27,507 nucleotides of DNA, taken from NCBI GenBank assembly GCA_963771175.1, contig CAVYSY010000004.1, positions 1-27,507 on the forward strand, given 5' to 3'. The position numbers were made by a program, and so were the translations under genes. Numbering within the stretch: the first letter of the stretch is position 1; each line of letters starts with the position of its first letter. Below are positions 15,826-15,918 of the stretch, piece after piece. A model generated the notes under the pieces. The model was not told the origin of the DNA and did not search any database. It was given only the letters and a program-made list of their open reading frames with translations. The stretch is from an uncultured delta proteobacterium (GTDB lineage: Bacteria > Myxococcota > Myxococcia > Myxococcales > Myxococcaceae).

Positions 15826-15918
15826 GGGGCCGCCCGCGGGACTGTGATGCGACTTCCGAACCGAGCCTTTGGAGCTTGACTAGCTGGTCGTGTCCTCCTT
15901 CCCCGGGCGGCCCCTTTT
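15826..15918 (+). ncRNA. Candidate Y-RNA-like structured RNA
   Basis: 5' and 3' ends pair (11 bp, bulged C15837, 4 bp), an inner 8-bp stem, an apical 5-bp/7-nt-loop hairpin and a 3' UUUU. Lies directly upstream of a Ro60/TROVE-like gene. Confidence 0.65.

Follow-up and report, generated by a model that had tools for sequence, protein, structure and literature searches.

In the 27,507-nucleotide (nt) stretch of Myxococcaceae DNA analysed here (contig CAVYSY010000004.1 of an uncultured delta proteobacterium; hereafter, the window), a 17-nt hairpin lies on the plus strand at positions 15862-15878. A preliminary description, made from the letters of the sequence, had presented it as a tRNA-Gln(UUG)-like anticodon stem-loop displayed inside a non-coding RNA. 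We conclude with moderate confidence that P3, as we call this hairpin, forms the apical helix of a new Y-RNA-like RNA which is genetically tied to a two-gene module coding for a Ro60-like protein and an ARPP-2 protein, and that it would not be read as a glutamine anticodon. The RNA itself, about 88 nt long, is a conserved and covarying rod that was previously uncatalogued and has no Rfam match. The hairpin is located inside a non-coding RNA, as first proposed, and this RNA adjoins the Ro60-like gene. No description of this RNA or of the gene pair was found in open-access papers and bioRxiv.

The comparison was built on loci encoding a relative of the Ro60-like protein. A scan with one genome per species gave 235 such loci, and the best 80 of the 235, numbered L001 to L080, were retrieved. 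They represent essentially two phyla, the myxobacteria and the cyanobacteria. L039, which comes from a record titled Comamonas sp., was counted among the myxobacteria because its Ro60-like protein (75% identity) and its RNA cluster with Myxococcus; the Comamonas label is probably wrong. RNA copies were counted as plus-strand covariance-model matches of at least 52 bits in the window and in the 80 loci. This gave 94 copies, the single one of the window (98.3 bits; echoes on the reverse strand reach 23-31 bits) and those of 75 of the 80 loci, always upstream of the Ro60-like gene and on the same strand. One copy is present in 59 sources, two in 16 and three in one. With blastn, nearly all loci proved to have the conserved core of the window intergenic region ahead of the gene, at about 80% identity over about 70 nt, even in Nostoc. 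With filters off, no copy was detected within 4 kb upstream in L038, L045 and L053, where both genes are present, nor in L047 and L071, where the upstream stretches are short.

The RNA has the outline of a rod, with three helices and two internal loops between them (Table 1). Its minimum free energy in the window is -50.1 kcal/mol (z -5.53), a value equalled by none of 200 shuffled sequences. Pairing statistics were counted on a structure-blind MAFFT alignment of 68 distinct homologues, using as controls partners slid by 1-3 columns and 500 shuffles. In this alignment, 19 columns are invariant and 97.0% of the cells hold standard pairs, as compared to 34-46% with slid partners. None of the 500 shuffles reached any of the five observed pairing measures. 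RNAalifold predicts 27 pairs in an unbranched rod, with a compensatory change at 16 of these pairs. All eight pairs of P1 show changes on both sides (98.1% of cells paired). The adjacent helix, which carries a bulged C, has five pairs, four without any variation and one varying on one side only. P2 contains nine stacked pairs plus one isolated C-G; four of its pairs have changed on both sides and 97.2% of its cells are paired. In the 7x7 internal loop, a UUCCG motif starting at U15854 is invariant in the 68 sequences. It reads UUCCGAA in the window (U15854-A15860). Across the same loop, a pair between G15883 and C15857 is C-G in 66 of 68 rows. In L032 (3650-3745) and L037 (3644-3741), the invariant G-C-GGG at the bulged-C helix is expanded into a longer G run, which may be a homopolymer error of these long-read Rivularia metagenome assemblies or a real variant.

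Searching the whole window against Rfam at gathering score returned no match. At E≤10, neither Y_RNA nor tRNA was retrieved with window positions 15600-16100 and 15820-15922 or with positions 3600-4050 of L054, and the names obtained (lncRNA, snoRNA and miRNA) were at chance level. A box C-like resemblance seen in a snoR117 alignment was dropped, as it is not conserved in the cyanobacterial copies.

In the window, P3 consists of five pairs (C-G, G.U, A-U, G-C, C-G) closing a 7-nt loop, with CGAGC at 15862-15866, CUUUGGA at 15867-15873 and GCUUG at 15874-15878. The sequence is exactly as initially claimed, with a stem of five base pairs (bp), one G.U and a 7-nt loop. The claimed absence of D and T arms was borne out as well, since ARAGORN detected no tRNA in the window, Rfam gave no tRNA match and the consensus is an unbranched rod. 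It had also been pointed out that a 17-nt hairpin can arise by chance. In terms of folding energy alone this caution is justified: the isolated 17-mer folds at -4.0 kcal/mol (z -1.44), 20 of 200 shuffles fold equally well, and loop positions 1 and 6 are paired in its minimum-energy fold. Comparative data lead to the opposite answer. The four inner pairs of P3 all have changes on both sides, with 90.6% of the cells paired. The hairpin is therefore real on account of covariation, not of the thermodynamics of the 17-mer. Besides this folding energy, the view that the hairpin is a chance structure, or a mere piece of a terminator, could only call upon the GC-rich P1 followed by UUUU. It is refuted by covariation in all four inner pairs together with the compensatory changes in RNAalifold; in addition, conservation spans two phyla and a consensus scan of window positions 15650-16050 called no terminator. 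We give this explanation virtually no weight.

The outermost, fifth pair (C15862-G15878) behaves differently from the inner ones. It is C-G in all 20 myxobacterial rows and C.U in 43 of the 48 others. Over the whole alignment, standard pairing at this place is seen in 22 of 68 rows only, and the 5-bp stem belongs to the myxobacterial rows and one other row. The 5-bp anticodon-like stem described at the outset is present in the window itself but is not a family trait, as most members have a stem of 4 bp.

The composition of the loop was tabulated on the 33 distinct 7-nt loops of the main RNA subtype. The length itself is 7 nt in 90 of the 94 copies. Position 1 is a pyrimidine (Y, C or U) in 31 of the 33 distinct loops, and position 2 is U in 32 of them (66 of 68 alignment rows). 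U is found at position 4 in 22 loops, a purine (R) at position 6 in 26, and A or C at position 7 in 23 and 7 loops, respectively. The full YUNNNRN pattern is present in 24 of 33. Loss of this 7-nt pattern from homologous apical loops, which had been set beforehand as the outcome speaking against the initial idea, is thus not what was observed; the geometry of an anticodon loop is therefore conserved. U is retained at position 2 irrespective of the base at position 7, so that these two positions do not form a Watson-Crick or covarying pair. The same frame, Y-U-NNN-A-A, is found in the loops of tRNA-Ile and tRNA-Ala of the cyanobacterial locus L060, the only tRNAs detected by ARAGORN in L001-L060.

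The centre of the loop is far less constrained. Its triplet takes 16 forms, and as many as five loops are found on one and the same P3 stem. Triplets complementary to stop codons are present in eight of the 33 loops. As a consequence, the proposed tRNA-Gln identity does not hold family-wide (16 triplets, including the nonsense-type ones). What stands of it concerns the myxobacteria, where a Gln-type Y-U-G, which covers both anticodons for Gln, occupies loop positions 3-5 in 21 of 23 copies, versus 9 of 55 other main-type copies, and is kept despite changes at positions 1, 3, 6 and 7. A purine at the equivalent of tRNA position 37 had also been described. This position is usually a purine in tRNAs, and we take the myxobacterial pattern as the opposite: the 23 copies have 15 G, 5 U and 3 C, meaning that the purine is lost in 8 of them, although it is found in 26 of the 33 distinct loops. 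In the second cyanobacterial subtype, described below, eight of the 16 copies have CUGUUAA as their loop, whose centre, GUU, is of Asn type, and seven differ from it by a single base; the last copy is two positions off. Judged from these sequences, the loop combines an anticodon-loop frame with no fixed "anticodon", and mimicry of tRNA-Gln is not supported family-wide. The clade of the window has an extra, clade-specific preference for Y-U-Y-U-G-N-A.

Rates of change were compared within 23 disjoint pairs of closely related copies, selected on the identity of their flanks irrespective of the loop. Differences amounted to 33/161 in the loop, 16/181 in the P3 stem, 88/1789 in the rest of the RNA, 273/3203 in the upstream flank and 712/4600 at third codon positions. 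According to Fisher tests, the loop changes faster than the flank (p 7e-6), and the comparison with third codon positions gives p 0.097. Hence, no positive selection on the loop is shown by these 23 pairs; drift of the loop centre suffices, because the rate of the loop is not significantly above that of third codon positions. The three or four bases at the centre drift at about the pace of third codon positions. Between L069 and L075, 4 of 7 loop bases differ as compared to 5 of 150 flank bases.

In many Nostocales loci, the RNA is present as two tandem copies. The one closer to the gene represents a distinct subtype, whose inner loop differs on its 5' side. In addition to the loci given in Table 1, two copies are found in L057, L065, L074, L031, L050, L055, L056, L060, L062, L043, L048, L051 and L058. 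These tandem subtypes recall the YrlA/YrlB pair of Salmonella.

The protein encoded next to the RNA has no match in Pfam, NCBIfam or PADLOC. It carries a DxSxS motif. Its AlphaFold2 (AF2) model has a predicted local distance difference test (pLDDT) score of 78.0 and a predicted TM-score (pTM) of 0.72. When this model was compared to the PDB with Foldseek, 12 hits were obtained at E≤0.001 (ranks 1-11 and 13), all of them Ro60/Rsr/TROVE structures aligned over the whole length. The Ro60/Rsr/TROVE matches range from E 4.7e-6 to 1.2e-3, with TM-scores of 0.36-0.53. At the fold level, this prediction points to a Ro60-like ring protein that has diverged widely and includes a vWA domain. Relatives at E≤0.001 numbered 1443 among 8000 scored candidates. 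The best 120 listed come from myxobacteria and from filamentous cyanobacteria, the latter with 63-70% identity, and are 473-543 amino acids (aa) long. Some sources name relatives 'TROVE' or 'VWA domain-containing'. The module is also found on large Nostoc plasmids: four PLSDB records carry the protein, in addition to a plasmid locus of our set, L057 (Nostoc carneum plasmid1). None of the phage records carries the protein, and the plasmid and phage collections widened the diversity no further.

In 76 of the 80 loci, the second gene follows downstream of the Ro60-like gene in the same orientation; of the four exceptions, two are cut off by the edge of a contig. Its product gave no NCBIfam or PADLOC match beside the ARPP-2 domain of Pfam. 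The AF2 model of ARPP-2 is poor (pLDDT 61.7, with residues 44-171 below 50), and Foldseek against the PDB with this poor model as query yielded no hit at E≤0.001. An ESM Atlas search with ARPP-2 retrieved only ARPP-2 clusters, from Cyanobacteriota and Actinomycetota. Outside the Pfam domain (residues 12-289), residues 330-388 form a C-terminal four-helix region with a pLDDT of about 80-90.

A model of the complex between the Ro60-like protein and ARPP-2 reached a score of 0.67, as compared to 0.00 for the best of three controls. Among reference cases, 116 of 157 solved complexes attain this mark, as do 2 of 215 mismatched pairs; these counts apply only roughly here, since the model was built from our own alignments. 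Agreement between runs extends to at least 57% of contacts, and the pLDDT of the partner is at least 62. The predicted interface involves residues 307-309 and 355-401 of the first chain, in the vWA domain and including the DxSxS serines, and residues 19-22, 179-186 and 239-265 of the second. The model supports, rather than shows, direct binding of ARPP-2 to the vWA domain of the Ro60-like protein. Should the model hold, ARPP-2 would be tethered without need of the RNA.

The gap between the two genes is 0.4-1.4 kb in some Nostoc and Rivularia loci and then holds an extra open reading frame (ORF) on the plus strand. In L070 (5542-6300), this ORF codes for 252 aa and has no Pfam match; gap ORFs were also seen in L080, and others in L063, L030 and L037.

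Several features relate the RNA to Y RNAs. According to the available text of published work, Y RNAs are 80-130 nt long, with a long stem and an internal loop (PMC4201824). In bacteria, their genes adjoin that of Ro60 (rsr), and Y RNAs have a second module by which an effector is tethered (PMC4201824; 10.1101/312249). Likewise, the present RNA, of about 88 nt, has a long terminal stem formed from both ends, internal loops, and a position beside a Ro60-type gene in 75 of the 80 loci and in the window, with Ro60 assigned by predicted fold only. Ro60 mainly reads the 5' strand of Y RNAs, at GGUCCGA in vertebrates, and the bacterial motif is GNCGAAN0-1G (PMC4201824). A conserved 5'-strand motif with UCCGA is present here. 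With UUCCG, or UUCCGAA in the window, it shares UCCGA and CGAA with the Ro60 motifs; it does not match the bacterial pattern exactly and is placed in the inner loop. A probable difference from Y RNAs is the second invariant module found here, made of the bulged C and GGGA/UCCC.

The comparison with YrlA is instructive. Both RNAs are tied to a Ro60-type gene and borrow tRNA features. However, YrlA resembles a tRNA in its T, D and acceptor parts and, in the words of the source, 'lacks the anticodon loop' (10.1101/312249), whereas the RNA described here has only an anticodon-arm-like hairpin and neither T nor D arm. An 'anticodon arm' of 5 bp with a 6-nt loop has been modelled in Deinococcus Yrn1 (PMC4201824). 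A supplementary table of the same work lists canonical Ro60 proteins of 533-534 aa in Nostocales, together with YrlA RNAs of 150-180 nt (PMC4201824). In contrast, the present RNA goes with a separate, shorter paralogue, of the length given above for the 120 listed relatives. As for the anticodon stem-loop of tRNAs, P3 shares with it the 7-nt loop starting with Y and U, followed by three free bases, by a purine in most cases and by a final A or C. It differs by its stem of mostly 4 bp, by a purine-37 that is not kept, by nonsense triplets and by the absence of the remaining tRNA. Finally, ARPP proteins were treated in a 2022 paper on conflict systems by Iyer, Burroughs, Aravind and colleagues, with ARG, HIRAN, WYL or deacetylase partners, and were proposed, as predicted enzymes, to act on ribose or ADP-ribose moieties (PMC9503650). 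The second gene of our module carries the Pfam ARPP-2 domain; the available text of that paper mentions neither a Ro60/TROVE partner nor an RNA (PMC9503650).

Ro60 and Y RNAs constitute a conserved RNA-surveillance system. In the reading we favour, the Ro60-like protein would bind the invariant internal loop and the top of P2. This putative site is proposed because its 5' strand holds the UCCGA core of the known Ro60-contacted motif. ARPP-2 would dock on the MIDAS face of the vWA domain. P3 would cap the protein-binding core and project from it, and it would be read by its shape, as a U-turn-type heptaloop, or act as a spacer or gate at the ring, with no reading of a glutamine anticodon. In some lineages, sequence preferences may be added on top of this shape-constrained cap or gate. 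To our knowledge, the role of the vWA/MIDAS domain of Ro60 is still open.

A number of observations weigh against this reading. The loop is not free everywhere, as shown by the Y-U-G of 21 of 23 myxobacterial copies and by CUGUUAA or its one-base variant in 15 of 16 second-subtype copies, which makes sequence-specific reading of the loop likely in those lineages. On the protein side, the partner is Ro60-like in fold only. Among 15 family members searched with Pfam at E≤1, TROVE was matched by none and vWA_Ro60 by one (E 0.036), and neither phmmer with the single protein nor a family profile found Ro60 among PDB sequences. On the RNA side, Rfam gave no Y_RNA match, either at gathering score for the window or at E≤10 for the window and L054 segments given above, and the UCCGA motif stands beside the apical hairpin, whereas classical Y RNAs have it in the terminal stem. 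Finally, the consensus scan mentioned above (15650-16050) called no promoter and no terminator.

Other explanations of P3 were considered. One of them, which builds on the decoy or tripwire of the preliminary description, is that P3 mimics an anticodon arm and is offered as bait or substrate to an anticodon-loop nuclease, a modifier or an ADP-ribosyltransferase, damage to it activating the complex and the triplet corresponding to lineage-specific targets. A real anticodon-loop frame is indeed kept (7 nt in 90/94 copies; Y in 31/33, U in 32/33, R in 26/33 and A in 23/33 loops), positions 2 and 7 form no Watson-Crick pair, and the frame is that of the two L060 tRNAs. Still, 8 of 33 loops have triplets complementary to stop codons, which are absent from ordinary tRNA sets, and in 43 of 48 non-myxobacterial rows the stem has 4 bp followed by a C.U mismatch. 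In the myxobacteria, the Gln-type triplet of 21 of 23 copies, maintained despite changes at positions 1, 3, 6 and 7, has to be set against the loss of the 37-equivalent purine in 8 of the same 23. No other part of this otherwise near-invariant RNA changes as fast as the loop centre, but drift suffices to explain this (p 0.097 against third codon positions). There are precedents, as known bacterial Y RNAs mimic other parts of tRNA, without the anticodon loop (10.1101/312249), and the action proposed for the ARPP family on ribose or ADP-ribose in conflict systems (PMC9503650) would fit; yet PADLOC matches neither protein and no phage copy was found. Altogether, we regard an anticodon mimic as unlikely. 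Its most elaborate version would make the heptaloop a hypervariable bait 'anticodon', which an invader enzyme cleaves, modifies or ADP-ribosylates, the ring sensing the damage and the MIDAS-held ARPP-2 being released or activated, with a centre retuned in each lineage (Gln-type in myxobacteria, Asn-type GUU in the second cyanobacterial RNA). This scenario seems more doubtful still.

The RNA might instead work chiefly in cis, within the operon mRNA, as its leader or operator; autoregulation by the Ro60-like protein would be one example, and P3 would then be just part of the fold. Its constant position upstream of the gene and on its strand fits this idea, and in single-copy Nostoc loci about 50 nt separate the end of the modelled RNA from the first codon aligned (query residue 10), the start codon being closer still. 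Two or three tandem copies in 17 of 76 sources, with two differentiated subtypes, are harder to accommodate, as is the RNA of L046, located about 1.26 kb upstream of the gene. The ends of the RNA give contrasting indications. No consensus terminator is found in the window and most homologues have no U tract after P1, but P1 of the window is followed by UUUU and a TAnnnT-like box stands a few bases before P1 in myxobacteria. The Salmonella Y RNAs are likewise encoded beside the Ro60 gene, 3' of it, and are bound by Rsr (10.1101/312249). A role mainly in cis is therefore given a low probability. A lower one still is given to the heptaloop being a base-pairing seed, for kissing or antisense interactions, that varies with its targets. 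An exposed loop with a U-turn-type frame and a lineage-specific centre would suit such a function; but merely three to four variable bases would be left for pairing, and near-identical loci differ in the loop (L069 and L075, quoted above). The data as a whole lead us to retain the view of P3 as the apical helix of a Y-RNA-like RNA tied to the Ro60-like/ARPP-2 module.

The surroundings of the RNA show additional features. In myxobacterial copies (window 15790-15826; L001-L017), the TAnnnT-like box ends a few bases before P1, and a GTCAGG-like box is found about 23 nt further upstream. Taken together, the two boxes may be a dedicated promoter, though the consensus scan called none. Both cyanobacterial subtypes have a common short 5' flank ending with CAG directly before P1 (e.g. 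L054 3700-3712), which could be a processing site or the context of a transcription start. Short tandem repeats of heptamer type are seen on one or both sides of many cyanobacterial copies (e.g. L066 3820-3880 and L024 3718-3780). On the 3' side (window positions 15919-15954), another small hairpin, rich in GC, stands at about 15922-15936 and separates the RNA from the ribosome-binding site (GGGAGG) of the Ro60-like gene. In its place, Myxococcus loci have a different hairpin, which overlaps the ribosome-binding site.

Table 1. Positions of the features discussed in the text (window positions unless a locus is named)
Feature	Positions	Strand	Basis or remark
MOSC-domain gene	14668-15774		upstream neighbour; the hairpin lies in the 180-nt gap before the gene at 15955
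Whole structured RNA, about 88 nt, then UUUU at 15915-18	15826..15914	+	covariance model, 98.3 bits
P1, 5' strand	15828..15835	+	pairs with 15905-15912
Near-invariant G15836, bulged C15837, GGGA	15836..15841	+	pairs with 15900-15904
P2, 5' strand	15846..15854	+	pairs with 15886-15894
7x7 internal loop, 5' side	15855..15861	+	with U15854 forms invariant UUCCG
P3 apical hairpin	stem 15862-66/15874-78, loop 15867-73	+	sequence, covariation, loop tabulation
Heptaloop CUUUGGA	15867..15873	+	frame fixed, centre variable
7x7 internal loop, 3' side, conserved CUAG	15879..15885	+	conservation line of the alignment
P2, 3' strand	15886..15894	+	pairs with 15846-15854
Invariant helix, 3' strand (UCCCC)	15900..15904	+	pairs with the 15836-15841 strand
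P1, 3' strand	15905..15912	+	pairs with 15828-15835
Ro60-like protein gene, 501 aa (predicted helical ring and vWA with DxSxS)	15955..17460	+	AF2 and Foldseek
ARPP-2 gene, 392 aa, overlaps previous stop by 4 nt	17457..18635	+	Pfam PF22549, E 1.4e-111
Tandem RNA copies, L054	3710-3803, 3853-3946		covariance model
Triple RNA copy, L018	3593-3686, 3739-3830, 3884-3977		covariance model

Overall, the locus would represent a compact and very strongly conserved variant of the Ro60/Y-RNA theme. Comparing myxobacteria with cyanobacteria, identity is 63-68% for the protein and about 80% for the core of the RNA. The locus joins an RNA that stands outside Rfam, a ring protein that is invisible to Pfam TROVE and an ARPP-2 protein that is predicted to sit on the MIDAS face. 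The interest of P3 itself lies in its combining the shape rules of an anticodon loop with a free centre, which would be the reverse of YrlA, where all parts of a tRNA except the anticodon loop are found.

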